From Candidatus Zixiibacteriota bacterium (GTDB lineage Bacteria > Zixibacteria > MSB-5A5 > GN15 > FEB-12): a DNA stretch of 64,000 nucleotides. The translations under genes and the position numbers were made by a program. The notes under the pieces are model-generated. The model was given only the letters and a program-made list of their open reading frames with translations. It did no database searches and was not told the origin of the DNA. The stretch lies in assembly GCA_036826635.1 (NCBI GenBank), contig DAISVY010000006.1, positions 14,554 through 78,553 of the forward strand, given 5' to 3'. This document shows, piece after piece, positions 1,529 to 47,003 of this stretch (the stretch's first letter is position 1; each line of letters starts with the position of its first letter).

Positions 1529-2725
1529 TCAGATACGCTCGAAAGCCTGTTCCAGGTCGGCTTTCAAATCATCTATCTCTTCTATTCCCGCCGAAAGTCG
1601 AATCAAATCGTTGGTGATGCCCGAAGCTTCCCGGGCTTTCTCCGATACGCCCGAGTGAGTCATCGAAGCCGGGTGCTGCACCAGTGATTCCACCCCGCCC
1701 AGCGATACGGCCAGCGTGATCAACTGCAGATTATTCAGCAACACGGTGGCTTTGTCGTAACCGCCCTTGACGCCAAACGTGAGCATGCATCCCGGACCGC
1801 GCATCTGGTTACCTTCGACCACCAATTTATACTGGGGATGATCTTCGAAACCCGGATACCGCACCCAGGCCACTTTGGGATGGTTTCGCAGGTACTCGGC
1901 CAGGGCTATAGCGTTCTGCTGCATCCGTTCCATTCTCAGCCCGAGGGTTTTGACACCGGTATTGAACAAATCGGCACAATCCGGCGAGAGCACACCGCCC
2001 CGGTTCACCACGCTGTTGCGAAGCCGATAGAAGTCCTTCTCGGCCGCCGCCACCAGCATACCGCCGATGGCGTTGGCGTGTCCGCCTATCGACTTGGTCA
2101 TCGAATGCAAAACGACGTCCGCCCCCAGATCGAGCGGGTTCTGCAAATACGGCGAGCAAAATGTATTGTCAACCACTAAGGGAATCTCGGCCCCCTGTGC
2201 GATTTCGGCCAGTTGGGCGATATCACTGATCGCCAGGGTCGGATTGGCCGGCGTTTCGACATAGAGAAGTCTGGTCTGCGGAATCTGGACGGCTTCAAGG
2301 ACTCGTTCCAAGTCTGACGTATCAAGGAATGTCGCCCGCACGCCCCATTTGGCGAAGAAATCCGCTTTCTCAAGTATGCTCCGCGACGGACCGTAAATAG
2401 AACCCGTCGCCACAATATGGCTGGTGGCGTCAAGGTAAGTGAAATACACCGCCTCTACCGCCGCCATTCCGGACGCGGTCGCGATACCACCGTAGCCGTG
2501 TTCCAGCGCCGCGATCTTTTTTTCCAGCGCATCCACACCCGGGCTGAACAACCGTGCATAGATACCCTCTTTCATGGAACTGGTAAAACGAGCCGCCCCG
2601 TCCTCGCAACTCTCAAAAGCGTAAGTTGAAGATCGCTCCAGGGGAGGATTCACCGGACCGCGCCGCGCATGATACCCGGCATGAACGGCCAGGGAATTGA
2701 ATCCGAGTTTCTTATTGTCACTCAT
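1529..2725 (-). CDS. PLP-dependent Cys/Met-metabolism enzyme, methionine gamma-lyase-like
   Basis: 398 aa. It carries the trans-sulfuration family signature HSMTKSIGGH (PLP lysine), an N-terminal AVHAG...RSSTYAF...GAARF...GIYARL pattern and an ASGMAAV motif. Its length fits MGL/CGS better than OAH sulfhydrylase. Confidence 0.8.
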   Translation of the reverse strand: MSDNKKLGFNSLAVHAGYHARRGPVNPPLERSSTYAFESCEDGAARFTSSMKEGIYARLFSPGVDALEKKIAALEHGYGGIATASGMAAVEAVYFTYLDATSHIVATGSIYGPSRSILEKADFFAKWGVRATFLDTSDLERVLEAVQIPQTRLLYVETPANPTLAISDIAQLAEIAQGAEIPLVVDNTFCSPYLQNPLDLGADVVLHSMTKSIGGHANAIGGMLVAAAEKDFYRLRNSVVNRGGVLSPDCADLFNTGVKTLGLRMERMQQNAIALAEYLRNHPKVAWVRYPGFEDHPQYKLVVEGNQMRGPGCMLTFGVKGGYDKATVLLNNLQLITLAVSLGGVESLVQHPASMTHSGVSEKAREASGITNDLIRLSAGIEEIDDLKADLEQAFERI

Positions 2726-2818: not shown

Positions 2819-3565
2819 TTAGCTTAATCCGATCCCGAGAGCCTCAAGCAACTGAGTCATAGCCGTGGTGGCTTTGTCCTGAAGGAACACATCCGTTATC
2901 TGATAAGTGTAATTTGATTCCAGCGTGTTCATTTCGATAATGGCCGCCCCGTTTTGTTTGGCTACCCGGGGAATCATGGAAGCCGGAACAACTTCTCCGG
3001 TCGTCCCGATAACCAGAAAGACATCGGCCGTCTCCGCTTCGTGCAGCGACCGAAGGTAAGCATCATGCGGTATGGGTTCACCGAAGAATACAAAATCAGG
3101 TTTAAGCAAACCGCCGCAGTTGCCGCAATGGGGCGGAAGCGCTCCCAGATCGATATTGGCTACGGGATAGCGTTCACCGCATTTCAGACAGATAAGATAT
3201 TGCGAATTGCCGTGGAACTCGTACACCTCGCGGCTTCCGGCCACCTGGTGAAGGTTGTCGATATTCTGTGTTATAACGGCCTGTAGCAACCCCTCCCGCT
3301 CCATGGCGGCCAGTCCCTTGTGGGCGGCGTTCGGCCTGGCCTGACCGAAGAAATCGTAGAAGATTTCCTTGATAACCACCCAGGCGTCTTCCGGGTTGGC
3401 TCGGAAATAGGATATATCCAGACAGCCGGGATCATACTTGCTCCACAGACCGTCCTCGCCCCGAAACGGCGGAATACCGCTTTCCACCGATATCCCGGCC
3501 CCCGTAAACGCGGTCACCCGCCGGGCGTTTCGGATCAACTCTGCGGCTTTTTCGTAAACAGACAT
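2819..3565 (-). CDS. cobB: Sir2-family NAD-dependent protein deacylase
   Basis: 248 aa with the motifs GAGISVESGIPPFRG, QNIDNLH, a Zn ribbon CLKC...CGNCGG, and the catalytic H in EFHGN. Confidence 0.9.
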   Translation of the reverse strand: MSVYEKAAELIRNARRVTAFTGAGISVESGIPPFRGEDGLWSKYDPGCLDISYFRANPEDAWVVIKEIFYDFFGQARPNAAHKGLAAMEREGLLQAVITQNIDNLHQVAGSREVYEFHGNSQYLICLKCGERYPVANIDLGALPPHCGNCGGLLKPDFVFFGEPIPHDAYLRSLHEAETADVFLVIGTTGEVVPASMIPRVAKQNGAAIIEMNTLESNYTYQITDVFLQDKATTAMTQLLEALGIGLS

Positions 3566-3570
3566 TTTCT

Positions 3571-5775
3571 TTACTTCTCTACCACGACCGCTACATCACG
3601 ACGTGGTTCTACTTCTCCGATAACAGCAGCTTCACCAACACCATGCTGCTGCAAAGCGACCGCAAGGGCCTGCGCCTTATCGGCCGGCACGGAAATGAGC
3701 AGCCCGCCCGACGTTTGAGCGTCATTCAGCAGGAACTGTCTTGTTTCCGACAGCGTGGCGTCGTATTGCACCTGCGCCCTGGTGAAGGAATGATTGTCGG
3801 CGGTGCCGCCGGGAATAAGACCCGACACGGCCAGATCGACCACATCGGGCAGGAACGGAACGTTATCGGCCCGGACAATGGCACTGCATTTCGACCCGTT
3901 CATCATTTCCGTAAGGTGCCCCAGTAATCCGAACCCCGTAACGTCGGTACAGGCGTTAACCCCGACCGTCTGCATTGCCTCGGCGGCCGCTTTGTTCAAG
4001 GTTGCCATGGTACGGGTCAAGATATCAGCCTGAGAAGCGTCCAGCAATCCACGCTTGAGAGCCGTAGACAGAATGCCGGTCCCCAGTGGCTTGGTCAGTA
4101 TCAGAACATCGCCCGGCCTGGCACCCCGGTTGGTTACGATCCGTTCGGGATCAATTATGCCGGTTACGGCCAGACCGAATTTCGGCTCGGTATCGTCCAC
4201 CGTGTGACCACCGATAATAGCAATCCCGGCCTCGCGAGCTTTGTCCAGCGCGCCCTTAAGTATCTCTTCAAGCACCCTCATCGGCAACCGATTGCTGGGG
4301 AACCCCACGATATTCAGAGCAAACAACGCCCTGGCCCCCATGGCGTAAATGTCACTCAGCGAATTGGTGGCGGCAATAGCCCCGAACTGGTACGGATCAT
4401 CGACTATGGGGGTAAAGAAATCCACCGTCTGCACGATTGCCGTGTGATCATCCAGACGATAAACGGCGGCATCATCGGACGTATCAGTGCCTACCAGAAT
4501 AGCGGGATCATCGGGCACCGGCAATTGCTGAAGCACCTTTTCCAGAAGCTGCGGACGCAGTTTGCAGGCACAACCCAATCCATGGGTATATCGGGTCAGC
4601 TTGATCTCGTCACCGTCGCTCGCTACCGGTGCCGGTGCCCCCTCCGGCGACAGGCTCCCGACTACGCGAGCTGTTTCTTCGATGGCCCGGTCGATCTCAT
4701 CGACTGTCGTGAAACGGCCGGTCGAAAAACGTATTGTCCCCATCGCCCATTCCAGCGGTATTTTCATCGCCTGCAGCACACTGGATATCTCGACACTCTC
4801 GCTGTGGCAGGCCGCCCCGGCCGATGCCGCCACCTGGTCAAGTTCCGAAAGAATGGTGTCGGCTTCCAGCCCCCGGAAACTGACACTGAGGGTATTGGAC
4901 AATCTTTTCTGCGGATGACCATTGACGCGAAGATCAGAAATATGCTCCTGCAAACCGTTTTCGAGACGATCCCGCATGGCCTTCAGGTGAGCGGCGTGTT
5001 TATCCAGATCCTGCCCGGCCAGTTCGCAGGCTTTGCCCAGAGCGACTATTTCAATTACGTTCTCGGTACCGGCTCGCCAGTTCCTTTCATGATCGGCGCC
5101 ATGGACCTGTTTTTCCAAATGCACGCCGGAGCGAATATACAGAGCGCCAATACCCTTGGGCGCATACAGCTTATGTCCGGCCACCGAAAGCAGATCGACT
5201 TTCAGATCATCCACCTTCACCGGGATTTTGCCGAGCGACTGGGCGCAATCGGTGTGCATCAGAATACCGCACCGACGGGCCATTTCGGCTATCTCGGCAA
5301 TCGGTTCGATAGTCCCCACTTCGTTGTTGGCGTGCATGATCGTAATCAGGATCGTCTGCGGCGTAACGGCTTCTTCCACCCGGGCCGGATCTACCAGTCC
5401 GTATTGATCGACCGGAAGATAGGTCACCCGCACGCCCCGAGTTTCAAGGTACTTGCAGACCTCGATAACGGCCGGATGTTCCACGGCGGAAGTTATGATA
5501 TGATTGCCCTTGTCCCGGTATGCCCGGGCCACGCCTTTAATCGCGTAGTTGTTGGATTCGGAACCGCCACTGGTGAAAACAATCTCTTCGCTGCTGCAAC
5601 CAAGCAGATCGGCTACCTGCCGACGGGCGATATCGACCGCTTTCCGGGCGGTGGCGCCGAAAGCATGGCTGCTGGAAGGATTGCCAAAATGCTCATTAAT
5701 AAACGGCAACATGGCCTGGCCGACCCGGGGATCAATGGGGGTAGTGGCGTTGTAGTCAAGATATATCGGTTTCAT
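3571..5775 (-). CDS. selD: Fusion protein: NifS-type cysteine desulfurase/selenocysteine lyase (N-terminal) plus selenophosphate synthetase SelD (C-terminal, Cys form)
   Basis: 734 aa. Residues 1 to about 385 are class V aminotransferase-like (LDYNATTP, PLP lysine in SVAGHKLYAPKG, active-site Cys in SAGAACHS). A short Pro/Ala linker follows, and then a complete SelD (LTRYTHGLGCACKL, DDAAVYRL, VQTVDFFTPIVDDPYQFGAIAATNSLSDIYAMGA, GGHTVDD). Confidence 0.9.
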   Translation of the reverse strand: MKPIYLDYNATTPIDPRVGQAMLPFINEHFGNPSSSHAFGATARKAVDIARRQVADLLGCSSEEIVFTSGGSESNNYAIKGVARAYRDKGNHIITSAVEHPAVIEVCKYLETRGVRVTYLPVDQYGLVDPARVEEAVTPQTILITIMHANNEVGTIEPIAEIAEMARRCGILMHTDCAQSLGKIPVKVDDLKVDLLSVAGHKLYAPKGIGALYIRSGVHLEKQVHGADHERNWRAGTENVIEIVALGKACELAGQDLDKHAAHLKAMRDRLENGLQEHISDLRVNGHPQKRLSNTLSVSFRGLEADTILSELDQVAASAGAACHSESVEISSVLQAMKIPLEWAMGTIRFSTGRFTTVDEIDRAIEETARVVGSLSPEGAPAPVASDGDEIKLTRYTHGLGCACKLRPQLLEKVLQQLPVPDDPAILVGTDTSDDAAVYRLDDHTAIVQTVDFFTPIVDDPYQFGAIAATNSLSDIYAMGARALFALNIVGFPSNRLPMRVLEEILKGALDKAREAGIAIIGGHTVDDTEPKFGLAVTGIIDPERIVTNRGARPGDVLILTKPLGTGILSTALKRGLLDASQADILTRTMATLNKAAAEAMQTVGVNACTDVTGFGLLGHLTEMMNGSKCSAIVRADNVPFLPDVVDLAVSGLIPGGTADNHSFTRAQVQYDATLSETRQFLLNDAQTSGGLLISVPADKAQALAVALQQHGVGEAAVIGEVEPRRDVAVVVEK

Positions 5776-5948: not shown

Positions 5949-7073
5949 CTAACCAAAAGTCGCCAGCAATATCCCGGCCCCGACAGCCGAACCGATGACT
6001 CCGGCCAGGTTGGGCGCCATAGCGTGCATTATCAGGAAATTGTTGGGATCTTCCTGGGCCCCGACCATCTGGCAAACTCGCGCGGAAATCGGGACGGCAG
6101 AAACACCGGCGGCCCCGATTATCGGATTAATACCCTGACGCGATAAGCGGTTCATCAGCTTGGCAAACAATACGCCGGAGGCGGTGGCCACACAGAACGA
6201 GGCGGCACCCAGAACGAAAATCTTAATCGATGTTACCGTCAAGAACCGACTGGCATCGGTCGAAGCCCCGACCGTCAGACCGAGCAGAATCGTCACGATG
6301 TCAACGAAAGCCGTTCGGGCCGTTGAAGCCAGTCTTTCAGTAACCCCGCACTCTTTGAGCAGGTTGCCGAGGAACAGGAAACCAAGCAGGTTGACAGAAC
6401 CCGGAGCTATGAATCCCGTTATCAGAAACGCAATGATCGGGAAGAGAATTCTAAGCCGCTTGCTGACCGGTTTGGATGGTTTCATCCGAATCAGGCGTTC
6501 CTTTTTGGTGGTCAGCAGCTTTATGATAGGCGGTTGAATAACAGGCACGAGCGCCATGTAGGAATATGCCGACACGGCAACAGCTCCCAGAAATTGAGGA
6601 GCCAGTTTTGAAGACAGGAAAATGGCCGTCGGACCGTCGGCACCACCGATAATTCCGATGGCTGCCGCGTCTTTGTACCCGAATCCCAACAGCACAGCCC
6701 CGAGAAAGGTCAGAAAGATTCCCGCCTGGGCGGCCGCTCCAAGCAGGATCAGCCGCGGGTTGGCCAGCATGCAGGAGAAATCGGTCATGGCTCCTATGCC
6801 AAGGAAAACCAGCGGCGGGTACCAACCCTGCGTAACACCCGTGTAGAGGATGCTGAGCACGCTGTTCTCCTCGTAGATGCCGATCTCCATACCCGGCTCA
6901 AAAGGAATGTTACCGACCAGAACGCCGAAACCGATGGGAACCAGCAGCAGCGGCTCGTAATCCTTGACTATTCCCAAGTACAGGAGAATACAGCCCACCA
7001 CGATCATGCCAAGATTGCCGAAGGTTAGGTGACCCACCGCCCCGGTCTGAATGAAATTCAGAAATATATCCAT
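5949..7073 (-). CDS. mmdB: Na+-translocating decarboxylase beta subunit (OadB/MmdB/GcdB family membrane pump)
   Basis: 374 aa polytopic membrane protein with the family-typical start MDIFLNFIQTGA...LTFGN and a GAAGVSAVP...ARV segment. It is the last gene of the decarboxylase cluster. Confidence 0.85.
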   Translation of the reverse strand: MDIFLNFIQTGAVGHLTFGNLGMIVVGCILLYLGIVKDYEPLLLVPIGFGVLVGNIPFEPGMEIGIYEENSVLSILYTGVTQGWYPPLVFLGIGAMTDFSCMLANPRLILLGAAAQAGIFLTFLGAVLLGFGYKDAAAIGIIGGADGPTAIFLSSKLAPQFLGAVAVSAYSYMALVPVIQPPIIKLLTTKKERLIRMKPSKPVSKRLRILFPIIAFLITGFIAPGSVNLLGFLFLGNLLKECGVTERLASTARTAFVDIVTILLGLTVGASTDASRFLTVTSIKIFVLGAASFCVATASGVLFAKLMNRLSRQGINPIIGAAGVSAVPISARVCQMVGAQEDPNNFLIMHAMAPNLAGVIGSAVGAGILLATFG

Positions 7074-7101
7074 GAGTTGCTCCTATAGGAACTACGGCGA
7101 G

Positions 7102-7500
7102 CTATTCCAGTTCGACCAGGACCTGGCTTTCGCGGACGGAATCTCCGGCGGCGACGGGGATGGCTTTGACTTTGCCGGAAGCAGGAGCGGCAATGGAGGT
7201 TTTCATTTTCATGGCTTCAATCACGAGCAACACCTGACCTTTGGTGATCGACTCCCCGACCTTGCACTTGATCTCGATAATTGTACCGGCGATGGGCGAA
7301 GCCACCGAGTTGTCGCTACCCGGCGCGGCGGGCGGAGTTGAAGCGCCCGAAGGGGGGGCCAGGGGTGTACGGCCATTCGGTTTTGCGGCAACGGGCCTCA
7401 CCTTCGGCAGGACGCCGCTTGGCGGGAATCCCTCGCCGGGGTCAAGCACTTCCACGTCTACTTCGTAAGCAACCCCATGAACTGTTATCTTTAGTTTCAT
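7102..7500 (-). CDS. Biotin carboxyl-carrier subunit of the decarboxylase (MmdC-like)
   Basis: 132 aa. It has an N-terminal beta domain, a Pro/Ala-rich linker and a C-terminal biotinyl domain with the EAMKM biotin-lysine motif. Confidence 0.85.
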   Translation of the reverse strand: MKLKITVHGVAYEVDVEVLDPGEGFPPSGVLPKVRPVAAKPNGRTPLAPPSGASTPPAAPGSDNSVASPIAGTIIEIKCKVGESITKGQVLLVIEAMKMKTSIAAPASGKVKAIPVAAGDSVRESQVLVELE

Positions 7501-7551
7501 CTCTCGTCTCCTAAGACTCTGTCATCCACGAACGTATGAAAAAGTATTTTC

Positions 7552-7896
7552 TTATCTTCCCCGACGATGCACATGCGAACCGTGAAGAATCGCTCGTCCC
7601 TGCGACGACCACGGTCCGGACATAGCGTCGACCGGCAGCAGTTTCTTGACGCTGCGAATGAAATACCGGCCCTGAAGCATGGTCGCCACTGCGGCCGTAA
7701 TCAGAACAAGCGTAAGCGAATCAATATTCTGTTCTTTCTCACCGGCGGCTTTCTTCTGGGCCGCTTCGCGGTCCTCCCACTTGGCGTCGAGTCGCCGAAC
7801 GAGTGATATCACCATCACAATAATGGCCAAGGCCACAAACACGATCAGGATACCGATCACCGAGAAACTGAGACTGAAGCTCATTGTATCTGACAT
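7552..7896 (-). CDS. Small membrane subunit of the Na+ decarboxylase (OadG/MmdD-like)
   Basis: 114 aa. An N-terminal TM helix is followed by a charged linker and a LITAAVATML segment, as in OadG-family proteins. Its position between the carboxyltransferase and carrier genes supports the call. Confidence 0.6.
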   Translation of the reverse strand: MSDTMSFSLSFSVIGILIVFVALAIIVMVISLVRRLDAKWEDREAAQKKAAGEKEQNIDSLTLVLITAAVATMLQGRYFIRSVKKLLPVDAMSGPWSSQGRAILHGSHVHRRGR

Positions 7897-7911: not shown

Positions 7912-9474
7912 CTAAAGCGGAATCAAACCGTGTTTTTTGTTGGGACGGAGTTCACGCTTTGCCTTCAGCACATCCAGGGCCGCGGCAAGATAGGCACGGG
8001 TTTCGGCGGGTTCGATAATTTCGTCGACCATGCCGTGTCCGGCGGCAAAGTAGGGATTGGCGAAGGTGTTCTTGTATTCTTCAAGACGCCGGGTTCGCTC
8101 CGCGGCGGGATCATCGGCTTCTTTGATTTCTTTTCGGTACAGCACATTGACGGCGCCCTCGGCTCCCATCACGGCGATCTCCGCACTCGGCCAGGCACAA
8201 AGGCGGTCGGCCCCCATGCTCTTGGCGCACATAGCCAGAAAAGCACCGCCGTAAGCCTTGCGCACCACCACGGTCAGTTTGGGCACGGTGGCCGAGGCAT
8301 AGGAAAAGAGCATCTTGGCCCCATGCCGGATAATACCGCCGTACTCCTGCTGGACACCGGGAAGAAAACCGGGAACGTCGACGAACGTTATGACGGGGAT
8401 ATTAAAAGCATTGCAAAAACGGATAAACCGCGAAGCCTTATCCGAAGAGTCGATATCCAGCACTCCCGCCTTAACCATCGGCTGATTGGCGATAATACCC
8501 ACCGACCGACCGGTCAACCGGGCAAAGCCTACAATAATGTTGGCCGCGAACTGCTCCTGCACTTCCATGAAATCGGCATTATCCACCACCCCGCATATGA
8601 TGTCCCGCATGTCATAGGGTTCCCCGGGATCGTCGGGGATTATGTTGTTCATACTTTCGTCGGGACCGATCTCTTCCTCGTACAAATCCGGATAGAAAGG
8701 GGGATCCTCGGTGTTATTGCTCGGCAGGAAAGACAACAGGCGTTTGGTAATATATATGGCGTCCTCGCCGTTCTCGGCCGTGAAATGTACCACGCCCGAG
8801 TAGTGAGCATGGCTTTCCACCCCACCCAGTTGCTCGGCCGAGATATCTTCCCCGGTAACCTGCTTGATCACCAGCGGACCGGTGATATACAACTGCCCCT
8901 CATGCCGCACCTGAATGATGAAATCGGTCAGAGCAGGCGAATAGGCCGCGCCACCGGCGCAGGGACCGGCGATAATGCTTATTTGCGGTACGACACCGGA
9001 GAGAAGCACATTACGATAAAAGACCCCGCCGTAAGCCGAAAGGGCATCGACACCTTCCTGAATCCGCGCTCCGCCACTGTCGTTAATAAAAATGAACGGA
9101 TCGCCCGTTTTCAGAGCGTCGTCCATGATCTGCTGAATCTTGCGACCGGTAGCTTCTCCCACCGAGCCCCCGGCCACGGTGAAATCCTGACTGGCGGCGT
9201 ACACCGGCCGACCGTCAATAATGCCGTGTCCGGTAACTACCCCCTCACCGGGGAACTCCTTGTCTGCCATGCCGAAATCCCGGCAGCGGTTCCGCATGAA
9301 CAGACCGGACTCGTCAAAAGTATCCTCATCAAAAAGAAGAGCAAGCCTCTCGCGAGCCGTCAGCTTGCCCAATTCGTGCTGCTTGGCAATGCGCTTGTCA
9401 CCGCCCCCCTTGTGCAGCCGTTCTTTTCTCTTCCTAAGATCATCTATTTTCGATTCCGCCATCAGCATCATCAC
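7912..9474 (-). CDS. mmdA: Methylmalonyl-CoA decarboxylase alpha subunit / acyl-CoA carboxyltransferase (PccB family)
   Basis: 520 aa with GGGDKRIAKQHELGKLTARERL, DSGGARIQEG and GPCAGGAAYSPALTDF motifs, closely matching the pattern of MmdA/PccB. Several Met codons lie at the 5' end, so the exact start is ambiguous (9462-9474). Confidence 0.9.
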   Translation of the reverse strand: MMMLMAESKIDDLRKRKERLHKGGGDKRIAKQHELGKLTARERLALLFDEDTFDESGLFMRNRCRDFGMADKEFPGEGVVTGHGIIDGRPVYAASQDFTVAGGSVGEATGRKIQQIMDDALKTGDPFIFINDSGGARIQEGVDALSAYGGVFYRNVLLSGVVPQISIIAGPCAGGAAYSPALTDFIIQVRHEGQLYITGPLVIKQVTGEDISAEQLGGVESHAHYSGVVHFTAENGEDAIYITKRLLSFLPSNNTEDPPFYPDLYEEEIGPDESMNNIIPDDPGEPYDMRDIICGVVDNADFMEVQEQFAANIIVGFARLTGRSVGIIANQPMVKAGVLDIDSSDKASRFIRFCNAFNIPVITFVDVPGFLPGVQQEYGGIIRHGAKMLFSYASATVPKLTVVVRKAYGGAFLAMCAKSMGADRLCAWPSAEIAVMGAEGAVNVLYRKEIKEADDPAAERTRRLEEYKNTFANPYFAAGHGMVDEIIEPAETRAYLAAALDVLKAKRELRPNKKHGLIPL

Positions 9475-9835
9475 CTTAAGACAAAAAGTTACTCATAGAC
9501 CGCCCAATGTATATCAAAATGGGAAAATGGCAAATAATTCCGGGCTGATTTCATCTTTTAGCCGACAGAAATCCCGGCTCGAGTCGTTTCGGCCGGGAAC
9601 CGTGGCCAAAAGAACAGGGGGGCACAAACGAGCAGGAGTGTCCGACCGGAAAGAACCGTGCCCGTGTCAAATGGCAATAACCACCCTTTGCGTCGGCGGA
9701 TTAGACTGTTCATGAAAAAGATACAATACCCGTCGGAAAACCGGACAGACCAACACCCCGCACCGGGCCAACCTCTATTGACCCGATGCCGCCCCCGATG
9801 TCTGTGTTTTCCGCAACTGCCACAAAATCGACAAA

Positions 9836-40320: not shown

Positions 40321-40635
40321 TGCTCCTGGCCCGAGGAATAACCGCGGCGTCTATTCTCTTATCATTCATTCTATTACAGAAAAAACTCCGGTCCGATCCA
40401 GACCGGGAGGTTGGCCCCGGAGATTGAAAAGGCTTGTTTGTCCGCTGCGGGCGGGGTATCTTTAGACTTAGCTACGGGGACAGCTACGAGCAATCGGCCT
40501 ATATTCAGTTCAGAATCCCGAAACGCCAAATTATGGCGCCCAAGGGTACTGAAAGGGGAACTTCAGGGACTTCAGCAATGTTATTTTTAGTACCCTGTAA
40601 TGGACGATTGCTTTCAGGACCCGGGGAGGCTTTGT

Positions 40636-41223
40636 ATGCCTGAAAGTAAGACCGGTAATCAGGAAAAACGCAGGGCTTTCGAAACCGAGGCCATGCCTCA
40701 CATGGATGCCCTGCTGCGAACAGCGTTGCGAATGACCAAAAATCAGAGCGACGCCGAAGACTTGGTACAGGAGACTTACGCAAAGGCCTACCGATTCTGG
40801 GACAAGTTTGAGTCGGGTTCCAACTGCCGGGCTTGGTTATTCAAGATAATGACCAACATATTCATCAACGATTACCGTTCCAAAACTCGCACGCCCGTTT
40901 CGGTAAACGTTGAAGACATGGATGACAGCTTTTTGTACGGGCAGTTGGCCAGCCTGGAGCCAGAGGACAACCCGGAACGGCAGTTGTTTTCCAAAATTTT
41001 CGACGACGACATCAAGAAAGCTATAGAAGAACTCCCGGACGATTTTCGGGTGGTGGTCGTGCTCTCGTTTCTGGAGGGCTTTTCCTACCAGGAAATCGCA
41101 GAGATTGCCGATCTTCAATTGGGAACGGTCAAGTCACGACTCCACCGAGGCCGGAAGCTCTTGCAGAAACAACTGCTGGACTATGCAATAAAGAATGGCT
41201 ACATCAAGGACACGGCACAATGA
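40636..41223 (+). CDS. ECF-type RNA polymerase sigma factor
   Basis: Region 2 reads DAEDLVQETYAKAYRFWDKF and region 4 reads FSYQEIAEIADLQLGTVKSRLHRGR. I chose the start at 40636 (MPESK) because a GGGGAGG RBS lies 6-7 nt upstream. Confidence 0.85.
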   Translation: MPESKTGNQEKRRAFETEAMPHMDALLRTALRMTKNQSDAEDLVQETYAKAYRFWDKFESGSNCRAWLFKIMTNIFINDYRSKTRTPVSVNVEDMDDSFLYGQLASLEPEDNPERQLFSKIFDDDIKKAIEELPDDFRVVVVLSFLEGFSYQEIAEIADLQLGTVKSRLHRGRKLLQKQLLDYAIKNGYIKDTAQ

Positions 41224-42044
41224 CATGTCAGGAAGCGCTGGAACTACTGTATGACATAATCGATAAAGAAGCCTCTGAAATCGATACGCAGGAAGTGAAG
41301 AAACACCTCAGCCAGTGTAAGCACTGCGCCGATGTCTATAGGATAGAGCGTTCTATTAACGAGTTGATTAAAGAACGGCTCGCGTCACAAAATCAGACGT
41401 CGCCACAGGTCGAAAGTCTCAGGGCGCGGGTAATCGCCCAGTTGGACAGTATCGACGGGGCGGAGTGTACCAACGATCAAGCCGACGTTTCCCCATCTAA
41501 AAAAAAAACTGAACCCACTTTCAGAATAGGGCGTGCTCTGGCTTTCGCGGCCGCGATTGTCATCGTAATCAGCGGCGCTTTTTACGGCGGCCAGTTTATT
41601 AAAGACAAAGCACCCTACTACAAACTGGAACAATCGCATTGGCATGTTTCGGACAACGTAACCAATTTTCAGGATGAAGGTGTCACCGTTTCGGCCAGAC
41701 AGATCGTTAACCATCGGGCGGCTTACAATCTCTATCCGACAGTGGGAGATTTCGAATTAATCGGCGGCCGGATGGAACAGATCGACGGGGTCCAGACGGC
41801 TCATTTCGTATACCGCGACGGCAACCGGATGGTATCGGTGTTTATTGCCCTGGCCGACCAGTTCCACCTGCCCGAAGAGCTACTGAAAACGGCCGTGACC
41901 AAGGACAATATCGAATTCTACGATCATCATTGCCGCGGTTGTCGACTCGTGTATCACCTGGTCGGCAATGCCGTGATCGTTACCGCTACCAACGAACGCG
42001 ACGTGGACCTTCTGAAGTTCCTTCCCGGCCATACCACGGCCTGA
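41220..42044 (+). CDS. Anti-sigma factor (zf-HC2 type, single-pass membrane)
   Basis: It overlaps the sigma stop (ATGA). The N-terminal H-x3-C-x2-C motif is HLSQCKHC, and one TM helix is present (ALAFAAAIVIVISGAFYGG). Confidence 0.75.
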   Translation: MTCQEALELLYDIIDKEASEIDTQEVKKHLSQCKHCADVYRIERSINELIKERLASQNQTSPQVESLRARVIAQLDSIDGAECTNDQADVSPSKKKTEPTFRIGRALAFAAAIVIVISGAFYGGQFIKDKAPYYKLEQSHWHVSDNVTNFQDEGVTVSARQIVNHRAAYNLYPTVGDFELIGGRMEQIDGVQTAHFVYRDGNRMVSVFIALADQFHLPEELLKTAVTKDNIEFYDHHCRGCRLVYHLVGNAVIVTATNERDVDLLKFLPGHTTA

Positions 42045-42094
42045 CCGGTCAGTTTGTTATTGCTTTTCCCGACCCTGGAAATAGCTTGACCACC

Positions 42095-43162
42095 ATGAGA
42101 CGACCGCCGGTCTTTCTTTTCTGTTTTATTCTGTTCCCGTGTTTTTTGATTTACGGAACTTACGCGGCCGATTCTTATATGGACGATTCCAGGATCGGCG
42201 CTCTCATGCGCGCCCAGGATTTCCTGTTCGATGACCGTTTCGACGCCGCCGATTCGATCTATACGGCCATGATCAATGAGTCTCCACGCGATCCGGCCGG
42301 CTATATCTTTCGAGCCGGTGGTCTTCTGGCTCAAATGAACGACCGCGAAGAGAATTTGCGAGGGGCCTTGTTTTCGGACTTGCTCGATTCGGTCGAGATA
42401 TTCAGCGAAGCGATTCTCGACACCTGCAACGATCGCACGGCGGCCTGGATGCATCTTTTCAGGGGACATTCGCGGGCCTATCGATCACTTTGGGAAGCCC
42501 GTTTTGGATCGGTCCTGAAAGCTCTCAGGGTGGGACTTTCGAGCAACGACGAGTATGAACGGGGGTTGATATGTGACAGCAGTCTTTACGATCTGTACGC
42601 CGGTTTGGGCTCGTACCACTATTGGAAATCATCCCGGGCCGGCCTTCTGCGCACCCTGGGGCTGTTTCGAAACGAGAAAGAGCGGGGTATTACCGAGCTG
42701 TACCTGGCTGTCGACTCCTCCGTGCTGCATCGGGAATCCGCCCACAGCGCTCTGGCGTGGGTATGGCTGGATCGTGATCGGTATGACTCCGTCATTGCTA
42801 TTGCTTCAGACTTCGCGGCCCGATACGACAAAGGAAAGACATTTCTCTGGCCGCTGGCGCAAGCTTACTATCTGCAAGAAGACTACCAACACGCTCTTGA
42901 GATCTACCGCATGATTCGCTCACGTCTGCTTGACTGTCCGGGGAACTATTTCAATCTGATCGAATGCGACTATTACATCTGCCAATGTCACAACTGGCTG
43001 TTGCGGGAAGATCGAGCGATTGCCGCCGCTCGACGAATACACGAATACCGCGACCTTATCCCCGATAAAACATTCGGACGGCAACGTTCCAAAGTACGCT
43101 TTCTTGAGCGAATGGCCACGCGGGAAACGAGAGTAACGGAACTTACGGCCGACTCGGAATAA
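42095..43162 (+). CDS. Hypothetical exported all-alpha (TPR-like) protein
   Basis: The start at ATG 42095 gives a signal-like N-terminus (MRRPPVFLFCFILFPCFLIYGTYA). The protein is helical-repeat rich. The ORF-track start at 41930 would overlap the anti-sigma gene. Confidence 0.55.
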   Translation: MRRPPVFLFCFILFPCFLIYGTYAADSYMDDSRIGALMRAQDFLFDDRFDAADSIYTAMINESPRDPAGYIFRAGGLLAQMNDREENLRGALFSDLLDSVEIFSEAILDTCNDRTAAWMHLFRGHSRAYRSLWEARFGSVLKALRVGLSSNDEYERGLICDSSLYDLYAGLGSYHYWKSSRAGLLRTLGLFRNEKERGITELYLAVDSSVLHRESAHSALAWVWLDRDRYDSVIAIASDFAARYDKGKTFLWPLAQAYYLQEDYQHALEIYRMIRSRLLDCPGNYFNLIECDYYICQCHNWLLREDRAIAAARRIHEYRDLIPDKTFGRQRSKVRFLERMATRETRVTELTADSE

Positions 43163-43165
43163 TAC

Positions 43166-45256
43166 TCAGGTCGAAGTTTCCCGCTGGCATTCGTCCAGAA
43201 GACGACACCCTTCCATCAGGATAGACTCGTTGGAATACTCGTTGTTGGCCGGGGGAATATCTTCTTCCGCGACCGGTTCGATAACCCACTTACCGCTGTT
43301 CCAGGCCAGGGCGGCGTATACCCCCTCGGCCCCGAGCAGATCACCGGACTGAGCGAACACGATCTGACCCTTTTTCAGATACAGGATCAGTTCGTTGCCA
43401 TTTGAGGTAATGCTTATCTTGGCCGTTTTGCGGCTCGGTCCCAACGCCTGCAACAGATCAATGAGATTCATGTCTTCCAGAAGACCGGCCGTACCGGTAG
43501 CGCTGACCGACTCGCCCCTGGCATTGGTTTCGGCCCGGGAACGCAGTTTGCGCATTTTCATTACGAGCAAATCGAGACCGTTTTCAATCGGGATGATATC
43601 TTCTATCCCCCGTTCGAACATGGAAGCCAACTCGGCGGCCGCCCGCTGCGAAGTCAACAGAAAAGTGGGAACTTTCACGATCTCGACACCGCGCCGGGTC
43701 AATTCGTCGATCTGTGCGATAGCTCTGGAGGCACGAGACTGACCAGCCAGTATAATATAGTCCGGGCGGCTTCGCTGATATAGTTCCACCAGACGGTCGG
43801 TGTTGCTGAGGGCTATCGGCCGGAAACCTTCCTGCCGGAGACGTTTGACAATCGGATTAAGCTGCTCGAGATCTTCGCCCATAACCAGAGCCTGATTGTA
43901 CTTGTTGGCCGAGGGCTCGATCAGAATCTCGTCCTCGATCATTTCTATGAACGTCTCCACCACTTCCGGGAGGAACAGTTTGCCGGTCATGGAAATCAAA
44001 TTGCTGCGGACGGCCTCGAACTTGTCCAGTGATATCTGTTCTTCGAACGACATGTTCTCGCAGAATATATCAACGATGGTCAGGATGTTGCCACCCAGGG
44101 TTTCGATAGGCAACCGCTTGGTATATTTCTGTTGCAGGTTGATATAGGCCGAACGCAATATCTCCACCACCAAGGGCGAATAGTTCAGCGAGTCCAGAAG
44201 CTTCGCGGTCAGAGCGATGCGAGTGCGACAGTCGGAAGCTTCTTCGGCCTCCCCATAGTAGAACCGGGACATATTGTGCAGATAGGCGGCGTTGACAATA
44301 CTCAAACGATCCCTGTCCGGAATCCCCATCTGTCGGCACAGACGATCAACATAGTGACCGACCACCCCGGCATGGTTGTCTTTGAGATTCTCCCGGGAAG
44401 CCAGAAGAGAAGTAAAAACCTCAAGGCTCTTGATTACCTGATCGTTCAGAATCTCGCTTTGCCCTCCGCTGAGAAGCAGTTGGGCCGGTGATTCGTAGTA
44501 TCGCACACAGGTCCGCGGTGATACTTTGCGCAACCGATCGATCAGATCGATATAATCACCCTGAACCGTGTCGCGGATAAAAACCGTATGGAACCTTTGA
44601 TTCCCGATGATTTCAATGGCATCGTCGGCCGAGTTGGTGCAAACAAGCTTATAATTTTCGTTTTCCAGAGCTTCCCGCAACGGCCGGTCGGCGTCGGGCT
44701 CATCGCTTACCAGCAAAATCGACCCGCGCGACGGCAGGATATCGACGGCCCCGGTATCGTCAAGCGAGGGGATTCTCTGTTGAATCGCCGGTTCTTCGGG
44801 GTCGGCATTCCGCTGAACACCAACGTAATGTCGAGCGACCGCGGCCCGCAACGGCATCTCGGCCGCCACGTAGAGTTTCACTTTCTTCCCGGCCGCCATG
44901 AAGTTCAACTCATTGATGAGATTCTCGTCGTCGGGATTCTCGCAGGCTATCTTGAGCAGATTGTCATCGGGATCGTAATCGAACGGTATGACGGTTCTGG
45001 CGATAGCCAGATTGGACGGTATAAGCTGGGTTATTTCTCTGGGGATTTCCACATCGGAGAGCATGACCGACTCACACCCGAACTGTTTCGACAAAGCCGT
45101 GAGCAAACCGGCTTCATCGACAAAGCCCAGTCGCACCAGATGCGAGCCCAGTCGACCACCATGCTCTCGCTGATATTGCAGGGCTGTCTTGACTTGTTCC
45201 TCGGTAACCAGCCCGTCCCAGAGCAGGATTTCGTCTATTCTCAAAGTGGTACTCAC
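43166..45256 (-). CDS. Multidomain signalling protein: MshEN-type c-di-GMP-binding domain, two receiver-like domains, a degenerate HD-type domain and a C-terminal DUF4388
   Basis: 696 aa. It has two consecutive 24-residue MshEN motifs (RIDEILLWDGLVTEEQVKTALQYQ and RLGSHLVRLGFVDEAGLLTALSKQ) and a T2SSE_N-like fold. The HD-like segment has AAYLHN in place of LHD. The C-terminal sequence LIDLLQALGPSRKTAKISI...GAEGVYAALAW is typical of DUF4388. Confidence 0.75.
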   Translation of the reverse strand: MSTTLRIDEILLWDGLVTEEQVKTALQYQREHGGRLGSHLVRLGFVDEAGLLTALSKQFGCESVMLSDVEIPREITQLIPSNLAIARTVIPFDYDPDDNLLKIACENPDDENLINELNFMAAGKKVKLYVAAEMPLRAAVARHYVGVQRNADPEEPAIQQRIPSLDDTGAVDILPSRGSILLVSDEPDADRPLREALENENYKLVCTNSADDAIEIIGNQRFHTVFIRDTVQGDYIDLIDRLRKVSPRTCVRYYESPAQLLLSGGQSEILNDQVIKSLEVFTSLLASRENLKDNHAGVVGHYVDRLCRQMGIPDRDRLSIVNAAYLHNMSRFYYGEAEEASDCRTRIALTAKLLDSLNYSPLVVEILRSAYINLQQKYTKRLPIETLGGNILTIVDIFCENMSFEEQISLDKFEAVRSNLISMTGKLFLPEVVETFIEMIEDEILIEPSANKYNQALVMGEDLEQLNPIVKRLRQEGFRPIALSNTDRLVELYQRSRPDYIILAGQSRASRAIAQIDELTRRGVEIVKVPTFLLTSQRAAAELASMFERGIEDIIPIENGLDLLVMKMRKLRSRAETNARGESVSATGTAGLLEDMNLIDLLQALGPSRKTAKISITSNGNELILYLKKGQIVFAQSGDLLGAEGVYAALAWNSGKWVIEPVAEEDIPPANNEYSNESILMEGCRLLDECQRETST

Positions 45257-45478
45257 CGCTGTCTGTCAGCTCTCTGTTTCCGACCCGATTCCCCTGCCCG
45301 GAGGCCCGGGCTTATATCTCCGGCCGAAACCGTACACGTACTCCTCTGCTTATGTAATCGGAAAGAGTCGGAACAATTGTACCGGTCAGGGCTGTTCAAT
45401 CTTTGCACACGGTTGACCTAAGCCGCCGAAATCAGACGATTCTTGCCGCGGGAATGTTCTTAACGTATTATTGGTACC

Positions 45479-46537
45479 ATGACCGACAAAAAAGAGCTTT
45501 CATCAATCAGACTGACCGCCGAAGTCAGTTGCTCGGGGTGAGCTTCCAAACTGGGGTCAAAGTTTTTGGCCGAAGCACTGAAAAATCTCACGCAGTCCGA
45601 CCACCCGGATCTTCTGGTAGGCTTCAATAAAGCCGATGACGCCGGGGTCTTCCGCCTGACCGACGAGCTGGCCCTGGTACAGACGGTGGATTTTTTCCCG
45701 CCTATCGTCGATGATCCCTTCAGTTTCGGCCAGATTGCCGCCGCCAACGCCCTGTCGGACGTTTTTGCGATGGGGGGTCGGCCCCTGACGGCTCTCAATA
45801 TCGTCGGTTTTCCGCTGGCCGATATGCCCCCGCAGGTCTTTACCGAGATTCTCCGCGGCGGAAACGAGAAGATACAGGAAGCCGGGGCGGTGGTGGTCGG
45901 GGGACATTCCATCAAAGACAAAGAGCTAAAATACGGCGTCGCCGTATCGGGAATAGTTCACCCCTCACACATCATTACCAACGCCGGGGCGGTTGTCGGC
46001 GATTGCCTGTTTCTTACCAAACCGCTGGGTACCGGCATCATTACGACAGCGATCAAACGACAGGCGGTCGACCCGTCCCTGATCGACCTGGTAACACGGC
46101 AAATGGCCGCCCTGAACAAAACAGCCGCCGAGTTGATGCTGCAACACGACGTCCACGCGGCCACCGATATCACCGGATACGGCCTCCTCGGCCACGGTTA
46201 TGAAATGGCCGAGGCCTCGGGGGTAAGTATCCGCATCGCGGCCGGGGCAGTTCCGCTTCTACCGGAAGCAGCACGGCTGGCCGGCGAGGGAATGAACCCC
46301 GGCGGAGCCGGAGATAATCGCGATTACCTGACCGGTCACGTACGAGTCGACGAGAACGTCGATAAAAACATCGAACAGGTATTATATGACCCCCAGACCT
46401 CGGGAGGCCTCCTGATGGCTATTCCCCCCGAGCGGGCGGACCGGTTCGCGGAGGCTTTACGGCAACATGGCTTGATATCAGCCGCCATCGGTAAAGTCAT
46501 CGCACGCGACGAATATGAACTGATCGTGGAAGCCTGA
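45479..46537 (+). CDS. selD: Selenophosphate synthetase with predicted selenocysteine (TGA 45539-45541) in the active-site loop
   Basis: The frame of ORF 45566..46537 stays open upstream except for one TGA. From ATG 45479 it reads MTDKKELSSIRLTAEVSCSG-U-ASKLGSKFLAEALKNL. The TGA aligns with E. coli SelD Cys17, and the Lys three residues later with Lys20. An in-frame TAA at 45461 bounds the 5' end. Downstream are canonical SelD motifs (DDAGVFRL, VQTVDFFPPIVDDPFSFGQIAAANALSDVFAMGG, GGHSIKD). Confidence 0.8.
45542..45576 (+). promoter_or_regulatory. Candidate bacterial SECIS hairpin immediately 3' of the selD TGA
   Basis: GCTT (45542-45545) pairs with AAGC (45573-45576), and CCAAA (45546-45550) pairs with TTTGG (45565-45569). 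The G-rich apical region is CTGGGGTCAAAG. The hairpin starts 1 nt after the TGA. Confidence 0.5.
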
Positions 46538-46745
46538 TAAAAAACGAGTCGCAGAGTAGTCTTTGCGGAAGGTTCGCATTCACGGGTTGCTCTCTGTCAC
46601 GAAACAAAGCGCCGGCTTGGGGAGTTATGACCGATGACATGACGAAAACCTGACACAACAAAGCAAACCGCGTGTATAAATGACAGGAAGTTGTTGTTGA
46701 CGGCATGGTGCCGTCGACCTTAACCTGACCTCGGTAGGAGGCGAA

Positions 46746-47003
46746 ATGGATATCGACGTTATATATTCCAAAAAGGATCCTCGGCAGGCCAGAACCATGG
46801 ATTTCGTGAAAAGATGGGTTCGCGATTGCGGTGTACTGGCCAAGATCGTGGAAACCGAAAAGGATGTGAACTCACCTACCGTTATTATAAACGGTCATAC
46901 CCTCCGCGATCTTCGCAAGAGTCCTCGCGGCACCAAGCCAGCCATGTATCCCACGACGAAGGATATCGCCAAAGAGCTGGAACGCCACGTCTGGTGTCTG
47001 TAA
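46746..47003 (+). CDS. Small hypothetical protein with thioredoxin-fold-like pattern but no CxxC
   Basis: 85 aa preceded by a strong TAGGAGG RBS. Its beta-alpha-beta-like pattern (IDVIYS...FVKRWVRDCG...AKIVETE...PTVIINGHTL) resembles small Trx/Rdx-like proteins. Confidence 0.55.
   Translation: MDIDVIYSKKDPRQARTMDFVKRWVRDCGVLAKIVETEKDVNSPTVIINGHTLRDLRKSPRGTKPAMYPTTKDIAKELERHVWCL

Follow-up and report, generated by a model that had tools for sequence, protein, structure and literature searches.

The 64,000-nucleotide stretch analysed here (contig DAISVY010000006.1, positions 14,554 to 78,553 of the forward strand, assembly GCA_036826635.1, Candidatus Zixiibacteriota bacterium), hereafter the window, carries on its plus strand at 45479-46537 the gene selD, which very probably encodes a complete and catalytically intact selenide, water dikinase (SelD) whose nucleophile is a selenocysteine (Sec) specified by an in-frame UGA at 45539-45541. 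A preliminary description of the window had proposed selD as a selenoprotein gene. This proposal is supported by the match of the product to the SelD profile TIGR00476, by the occurrence of TGA or TGC at one and the same column in 80 related loci, by a conserved start codon upstream of the TGA and by a covarying hairpin of the bacterial selenocysteine insertion sequence (bSECIS) type directly behind it. As far as can be judged from sequence, selD agrees with the SelD family and with bacterial selenoprotein genes in every membership feature that we tested.

The structure of the gene is as follows.

45479-46537, plus strand: complete coding sequence (CDS) of selD, 352 codons including Sec21, plus stop codon.
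45479-45481, plus strand: start codon ATG, the sole canonical start downstream of the in-frame TAA at 45461-45463.
45539-45541, plus strand: in-frame TGA, predicted Sec residue 21 at the catalytic Sec/Cys site, aligning to Cys17 of Escherichia coli SelD.
46535-46540, plus strand: true stop of selD, TGA (46535-46537) followed immediately by TAA.

The positions given in the preliminary description for the gene, for the TAA at 45461, for the ATG at 45479 as its sole ATG start and for the TGA are all correct in the sequence. The five codons between the TAA and the ATG comprise no ATG, GTG or TTG, and the ATG opens 20 sense codons (MTDKKELSSIRLTAEVSCSG) that are followed by the TGA, the only interruption of the 352-codon frame, and by a further 331 sense codons. 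In the mechanical list of open reading frames (ORFs) the gene is cut, as had been pointed out before, at the TTG at 45566 (45566-46537, P0001), which yields 323 amino acids (aa) as compared with 352 codons. This TTG is a Leu codon in the window and reads CTG in eight relatives, and a protein begun there is devoid of the catalytic Sec/Cys-Lys loop. A sigma-70-like promoter match (TTGCCG, 17-nt spacer, TATTAT) lies at 45443-45471 on the plus strand and ends 7 nt before the selD ATG, so that the selD mRNA would be leaderless or nearly so if this match were used; sigma-70-like matches around selD are no more frequent than in shuffled sequences, and a Shine-Dalgarno sequence is not evident.

The identity of the product was assessed by profile searches, in which Cys was put in place of the residue encoded by the TGA. 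The 352-aa product reached 393.5 bits against TIGR00476, the NCBIfam SelD equivalog (cutoff 125 bits), with residues 11-319 covering profile positions 1-310 of 311, and 347.4 bits against NF002098 (cutoff 299 bits); the Pfam domains AIRS and AIRS_C were both found. The comparison with the family model that had been suggested as a check thus came out in favour of SelD. Since the TIGR00476 match begins at profile position 1 with residue 11, the segment preceding the TGA is part of the conserved N-terminus of the family. The best match among solved structures was E. coli SelD (PDB 3u0o, E = 7.7e-72, residues 8-342), and the product is also homologous to the Aquifex aeolicus SelD structure 2yye. 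Pairwise alignment with 3u0o places the TGA on Cys17 and Lys24 on Lys20, which bears out the earlier assignment of the TGA to the catalytic Cys position and of the Lys three residues later to Lys20. The glycine-rich catalytic loop reads SCSG-[TGA]-ASK, compared with GAG-C17-GC-K20 in E. coli, and is present only in a product begun at 45479 with readthrough of the TGA. The Asp-containing motifs DDA(GV), VDFF, SDVFAMGG and TDITGYG are aligned and conserved with respect to 3u0o; in SelD, a metal-binding role is assigned to particular Asp residues of the ATP/metal site.

A scan for relatives with one genome per species gave 80 loci, in each of which the homologous codon was located. Of these codons, 61 are TGA and 19 are TGC, which answers the check on orthologues that had been proposed earlier, and the flanking peptide is conserved on both sides, with the context LTxxxxxxG-[U/C]-xxK. 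All of the 38 closest loci carry TGA; they belong mostly to metagenome-assembled genomes (MAGs) of Zixibacteria, some being labelled Ignavibacteriales or Calditrichaeota (the TGA-type selD of L012 is a Calditrichaeota locus), and the closest relatives in the genome collection are Zixibacteria MAGs with an identity of at most 67%. TGA-type selD genes also occur in Chloroflexi, Dehalococcoidia, Planctomycetota and other lineages, hence in several phyla, and the TGC-type loci are found mainly in Clostridia, where the motif is GCGAK. One close relative of the same syntenic clade (L083) has TGT at this codon. A single-base difference would suffice for the TGA to be a sequencing or assembly error for TGC or TGT, and nothing specific speaks in favour of such an error. 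Its probability is close to negligible, given that the TGA recurs in 61 independently assembled genomes, including 38 of the 38 closest, and that a clade-specific hairpin goes with it, which the close relative with TGT has only in degraded form.

Translation of the segment upstream of the TGA was examined in an ungapped alignment (A1) of the window and its 33 closest loci, 34 sequences that are referred to below as the clade. In 32 of the 34 sequences, the codon at exactly -20 relative to the TGA is a start codon, namely ATG in the window and in 29 loci (30 in all) and GTG in L007 and L025; L032 and L033 have no start codon at this position. Directly upstream of the conserved start the conservation ends and stop codons appear. 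All of the 12 codons that precede the TGA vary at the third position and 4 of them at the second, and the pre-TGA codon differences amount to 2727 synonymous versus 1509 non-synonymous changes; this predominance of third-position and synonymous variation indicates that the segment is translated in this frame. Behind the TGA, 9891 synonymous versus 3882 non-synonymous codon differences in codons +40 to +79 reveal purifying selection. A conserved start codon downstream of the TGA was found neither in the clade alignment nor among the gene calls of the best 120 database homologues. Orthologues that initiate after the TGA and lack the N-terminal loop had been named beforehand as an observation that would speak against a selenoprotein; what the clade displays instead is the start at -20 codons. 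Taken together, the conserved upstream start, the coding-type variation and the lack of a conserved downstream start exclude a gene starting 3' of the TGA.

These data bear directly on the possibility that the TGA is a true stop, in which case selD would either start downstream, for example at TTG 45566, and encode a truncated SelD-like protein, or be a pseudogene that is dispensable beside the fusion of a NifS-like enzyme with SelD described below. The annotations do read this way, as the ORF list gives the 323-aa P0001 and 119 of the 120 best protein-database homologues are annotated at 306-338 aa, and the window does hold a second, intact SelD of the Cys type. The lengths of the homologues, however, indicate that gene callers cut selD at the same TGA, and the single exception among the best 120 is P0093, a full-length Cys form of 351 aa (SCAG-C-AAK). 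A true stop is also difficult to reconcile with 20 pre-TGA codons that are conserved as protein with mostly synonymous variation and a conserved start throughout the clade, with conservation of the TGA in 61 genomes of several phyla, with a product from 45566 that would have lost the catalytic loop, and with purifying selection on the rest of the gene. We consider a true stop highly improbable.

Directly behind the TGA, within the CDS, lies a hairpin with the following parts.

45542-45576, plus strand: SECIS-like hairpin within the CDS (RNAfold and covariation).
45542-45546 paired with 45572-45576, plus strand: lower stem; 5' internal loop of 8 nt at 45547-45554.
45555-45561 paired with 45565-45571, plus strand: upper stem of 7 bp with the apical loop GUU at 45562-45564.

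The upper stem starts 13 nt after the TGA, the spacing between UGA and loop is 20 nt, and RNAfold gives a minimum free energy (MFE) of -9.4 kcal/mol for 35 nt and of -10.9 kcal/mol for 42 nt. Bacterial SECIS elements have been described by a loop of 3-9 nt, an upper stem of 4-16 bp, a UGA-to-loop spacing of 16-37 nt and an MFE of -7.5 kcal/mol or lower (PMC13188914), and with its 3-nt loop, 7-bp stem, 20-nt spacing and the energies given above the hairpin lies within all four ranges. A G is moreover expected within the first two loop positions, typically as G followed by G or U (PMC13188914). G45562, the first base of the loop, is invariant in 34 of 34 clade sequences although it occupies the third (wobble) position of a codon, and the loop, minimal with its 3 nt, varies between GUU, GGU and GGC.

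Across the clade the upper stem is 95% paired, and compensatory two-sided changes occur in five of its seven pairs (AU to GC or CG; GC to CG, AU or UA). The observed covariation was reached by none of 500 shuffles, and control structures slid by 1-3 columns were just 32-49% paired. The stem is retained where the encoded peptide shifts from P-K-F-L-A to P-A-V-L-A. A mean of 6.65 of 7 pairs is formed at these columns in the clade versus about 3.5 of 7 in TGC-type genes, the TGT variant L083 has a degraded version of the hairpin, and the Cys-type paralogue of the window does not form it. The preliminary description had placed a hairpin with a G-rich apical loop at 45542-45576; this span is borne out, but covariation supports the GUU loop and not the G-rich one. 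The fold with the G-rich loop (45547-45552 pairing with 45561-45568) was rejected, as its covariation of 0.144 among the 34 orthologues compares with 0.140 in shuffles, 165 of 500 of which reach it. The sole other match in the window to a covariance model built from the hairpin (R1) scores 20 bits and lies at 4519-4572 on the minus strand, in the Cys-codon region of the fusion gene, and was attributed to coding homology and not to a second SECIS.

A second type of hairpin, GGCGCAG-GUN-CUGCGCC, was observed in Chloroflexi, Dehalococcoidia and Anaerolineae whose selD is of the TGA type (L038, L046, L051, L055, L058, L061, L068, L069, L073, L074, L076 and L077). Situated about 30-46 nt after the TGA, it is shifted downstream by about 13 nt relative to the Zixibacteria hairpin and shows the compensatory variants CAG/CUG to CAA/UUG. 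By its sequence it looks like a second, lineage-specific type of SelD SECIS, and such differences among lineages fit the known lineage-specificity of bacterial SECIS elements.

Several observations weigh against a Sec-encoding selD. The energy of the hairpin is ordinary for its composition (z = -0.5 to -0.7 versus shuffles, and folding z-scores overall of up to +0.6); thermodynamics alone fails to discriminate, and the evidence for the hairpin is comparative. A search of the window against Rfam at gathering thresholds gave no match, a permissive scan of 45450-45650 returned just a chance match of 7.8 bits, and neither type of SelD hairpin is covered by an Rfam model. The genes selA and selB and a tRNA-Sec were found neither in the window nor in 9.7 kb of additional left flank (L081). 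With ARAGORN, neither the window nor 60 selD loci yielded a tRNA, and among the 50 long window ORFs, 40 of which were scanned with Pfam, selA and selB were not detected; since every ORF above 250 aa was scanned, the expected sizes of both genes were covered. In related loci, too, the sel genes are not next to selD, the neighbours of which are genes for TPR proteins, anti-sigma factors, isocitrate dehydrogenase, superoxide dismutase and similar proteins. Finally, a scan of the window for pairs of ORFs that an in-frame TGA separates gave no convincing further selenoprotein gene among the larger candidates inspected; the candidates besides selD were rejected as antisense to Pfam-verified genes or as chance in-frame neighbours (e.g., 22558/23773).

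The negative outcome of the search for the Sec machinery in the available sequence would also be in line with decoding of the UGA as Cys or Trp by near-cognate or suppressor tRNAs, or with its reassignment (genetic codes 4 or 25). TGA, however, terminates 23 of the 50 longest non-overlapping ORFs of the window, including the Pfam-verified genes for GlyRS, RecO and ribonucleotide reductase as well as selD itself. It is therefore an ordinary stop codon, and UGA is not reassigned. General suppression, moreover, does not predict a covarying hairpin with the loop and the spacing of a bSECIS, as a SelB-dependent mechanism does, and Caldithrix abyssi, which has the same pair of SelD proteins as the window, is reported to possess the Sec machinery and other selenoproteins (PMC4561486 Suppl. 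S2). Readthrough without Sec accordingly has only a slim chance of being correct, and from the conserved recoding signals we infer that the organism has the capacity to decode UGA as Sec.

The pair of SelD proteins arises from a second gene on the opposite strand of the window, about 40 kb from the Sec-type selD.

3571-5775, minus strand: NifS-like cysteine desulfurase/selenocysteine lyase fused to a Cys-type SelD, 734 aa, motif GLGCACK.

With its class-V aminotransferase domain and complete Cys-type SelD, the predicted product is a NifS-SelD fusion. Pfam places Aminotran_5 at residues 4-363, AIRS at 434-541 and AIRS_C at 553-732, and residues 392-700 match TIGR00476 with 403.9 bits. Aligned over 343 aa, the SelD domain of the fusion and the Sec-type SelD share 50% identity, and a Cys faces the TGA. 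The fusion has no fewer than 120 close homologues of full length, and Cys occupies the Sec site in all of the best 120; their named sources are Zixibacteria, Marinimicrobia, Latescibacterota and Caldithrix, the Caldithrix homologue (P0215) being 70% identical to the fusion of the window. The complete Zixibacteria chromosome CP070766.1 holds the same pair, the TGA-type selD (L026, near 0.12 Mb) and the fusion (L082, near 2.0 Mb) being 1.9 Mb apart, and both genes apparently also occur together on a 3.84-Mb contig (P0118 and P0154). As the Cys and the full catalytic motif are retained, the Cys-type SelD is expected to be active. The preliminary description had concluded that selenophosphate synthesis in this organism depends on its own product. 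This conclusion is weakened by the fusion, since a Cys-type SelD in the same cell could prime selenophosphate synthesis, so that the Sec-type enzyme is not strictly self-dependent.

Immediately on the 3' side of the fusion and on the same strand follow a gene for a Sir2-family deacetylase (2819-3565, minus strand) and one for a pyridoxal phosphate-dependent enzyme of Cys/Met metabolism (1529-2725, minus strand). The best match of the latter is methionine gamma-lyase, below the curated cutoff, and the putative gamma-lyase might act on selenomethionine or other seleno-amino acids. The TGC-type selD genes of Clostridia (L041, L044, L045, L053, L054, L056 and others) are flanked by separate genes for a NifS-like class-V aminotransferase and for a Sulf_transp (YedE-like) protein, an arrangement in which the NifS-SelD pairing exists without fusion.

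On the model of the known bacterial pathway, SelB·GTP·Sec-tRNASec would bind the hairpin, whose upper stem (45555-45571, with the GUU loop) begins 13 nt behind the UGA, and would bring Sec into the ribosomal A site, where release factor 2 would otherwise act. At 46535 the second TGA, which has no such hairpin, would terminate the protein. In the finished enzyme, the N-terminal loop SCSG-U-ASK would bind selenium and, together with Lys24, catalyse the ATP-dependent formation of selenophosphate. The Cys-type fusion may supply the first selenophosphate, or may recycle selenium from selenocysteine, and the Sec-type SelD would then not be needed for its own synthesis. We infer Sec insertion, SelB binding and a division of labour between the two SelD proteins from the conservation of gene and hairpin and from the presence of the fusion.

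SelD is among the commonest bacterial selenoproteins, which is textbook biology. The SelD proteins of Haemophilus influenzae and A. aeolicus, which we take to be natural selenoproteins (the structures 2yye and 2zod presumably having been solved as the Sec-to-Cys form), belong to the same family and have UGA at the same active-site column, and the motif of the A. aeolicus protein, SSG-C(U)-AAK, is nearly identical to the SG-U-A[AS]K of the window. The window gene differs from both in that it comes from another lineage and its SECIS hairpin is clade-specific. The catalytic loop and the Asp motifs of E. coli SelD (3u0o) align with those of the window SelD, but E. coli uses Cys (GAGCGCK), whereas the window gene has UGA and no second Cys (SG-U-ASK). 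Like the bSECISearch consensus and the SECIS of E. coli fdhF, the hairpin of the window is a stem-loop in the CDS just after the UGA, and its loop begins, as the consensus allows, with G followed by U; in contrast to the fdhF element, with which it shares no sequence similarity, its loop is the minimal one of 3 nt. Of the prokaryotic SelD genes, 19% encode Sec, and the site is the same in all of them (PMC4561486); SelD is the second largest prokaryotic selenoprotein family (PMC13188914).

The closest known parallel in gene content is C. abyssi, where a NifS-SPS(Cys) fusion and a standalone SPS(Sec), SPS denoting selenophosphate synthetase, have been described (Mariotti et al. 2015, PMC4561486 Suppl. 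S2); in 2015 the fusion was known from just two prokaryotic genomes (PMC4561486). Mariotti et al. speculated that the fusion acts solely on selenium handed over by NifS. The two-gene arrangement within one genome is the same as in the window, but the pair reported here resides in a Zixibacteria-like genome, with its genes 40 kb apart. Animals likewise have two paralogues per genome, SPS1 and SPS2, just one of which is a selenoprotein (PMC4561486). The animal duplication is independent of the SelD pair of the window, and SPS1, with Thr or Arg at the site, has lost selenophosphate synthesis, whereas the non-Sec paralogue of the window keeps Cys and the full motif.

Downstream of selD, at a distance of 0.2 kb, lies an 85-aa ORF (46746-47003, plus strand) that recurs in no fewer than 14 related loci, where it has the orientation of selD, follows it at 0.2-3 kb and shows 29-61% identity (L001 6416-6670, L003 5916-6170, L005 4230-4478, L015 4357-4611, L083 4968-5219 and others). 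Neither Pfam nor NCBIfam gave a match for it, and it lacks both a CxxC motif and an in-frame TGA. The AlphaFold single-sequence model of its product (predicted local distance difference test score, pLDDT, 70.6) has a beta-alpha-beta-beta-beta-alpha topology and gave weak Foldseek matches (E of 0.02 or higher), mostly to thioredoxin-fold proteins, including entries of the SelW/Rdx family. Upstream of selD, the plus-strand region 40600-43162 contains a gene for an extracytoplasmic function (ECF) sigma factor (40600-41223), a probable anti-sigma ORF that overlaps its stop (41220-42044) and a 410-aa ORF without Pfam match, followed on the minus strand (43166-45256) by a 696-aa regulator with MshEN, a partial receiver domain and DUF4388. 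Genes for zf-HC2 anti-sigma factors and TPR proteins and a minus-strand ORF of about 700 aa recur upstream of selD in related loci. Elsewhere in the window, the longest ORF at 7930-9498 (plus strand, 522 aa) has no Pfam match, and on an identical Logan contig the gene called here is instead that of a 518-aa carboxyltransferase on the opposite strand (7912-9468, minus), which completes a cluster of the oxaloacetate/methylmalonyl-CoA decarboxylase type with OAD_gamma, biotinyl carrier and OAD_beta (5949-7896).

A more far-reaching reading, which we regard as doubtful, is a feed-forward circuit that senses selenium and is made up of the fusion and the standalone Sec-type SelD in Zixibacteria, Calditrichaeota, Marinimicrobia and Latescibacteria. 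In it, the Cys-type fusion would produce a basal amount of selenophosphate solely from selenocysteine or from selenium delivered by NifS, and the more active Sec-type enzyme would be translated only once this selenophosphate is supplied; the minimal GUU-loop SECIS and the downstream 85-aa ORF with its presumed thioredoxin fold would be lineage-specific parts of the circuit.

Sec-type SelD has long been known in bacteria, and the value of the present finding is a practical one, namely a corrected gene model in a poorly studied lineage. As selD and 119 of its 120 closest database homologues are mis-annotated without the catalytic loop, Sec use would be under-reported in Zixibacteria-like lineages. 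The covarying hairpin provides a clean, lineage-specific SECIS alignment that may be used for finding more selenoprotein genes in these genomes. A Sec-type selD predicts that selA, selB and tRNA-Sec are present in the organism, and probably further selenoproteins as well. The two-SelD arrangement is extended from C. abyssi to Zixibacteria, and it would remove the apparent chicken-and-egg problem of a selenophosphate synthetase that itself depends on Sec.

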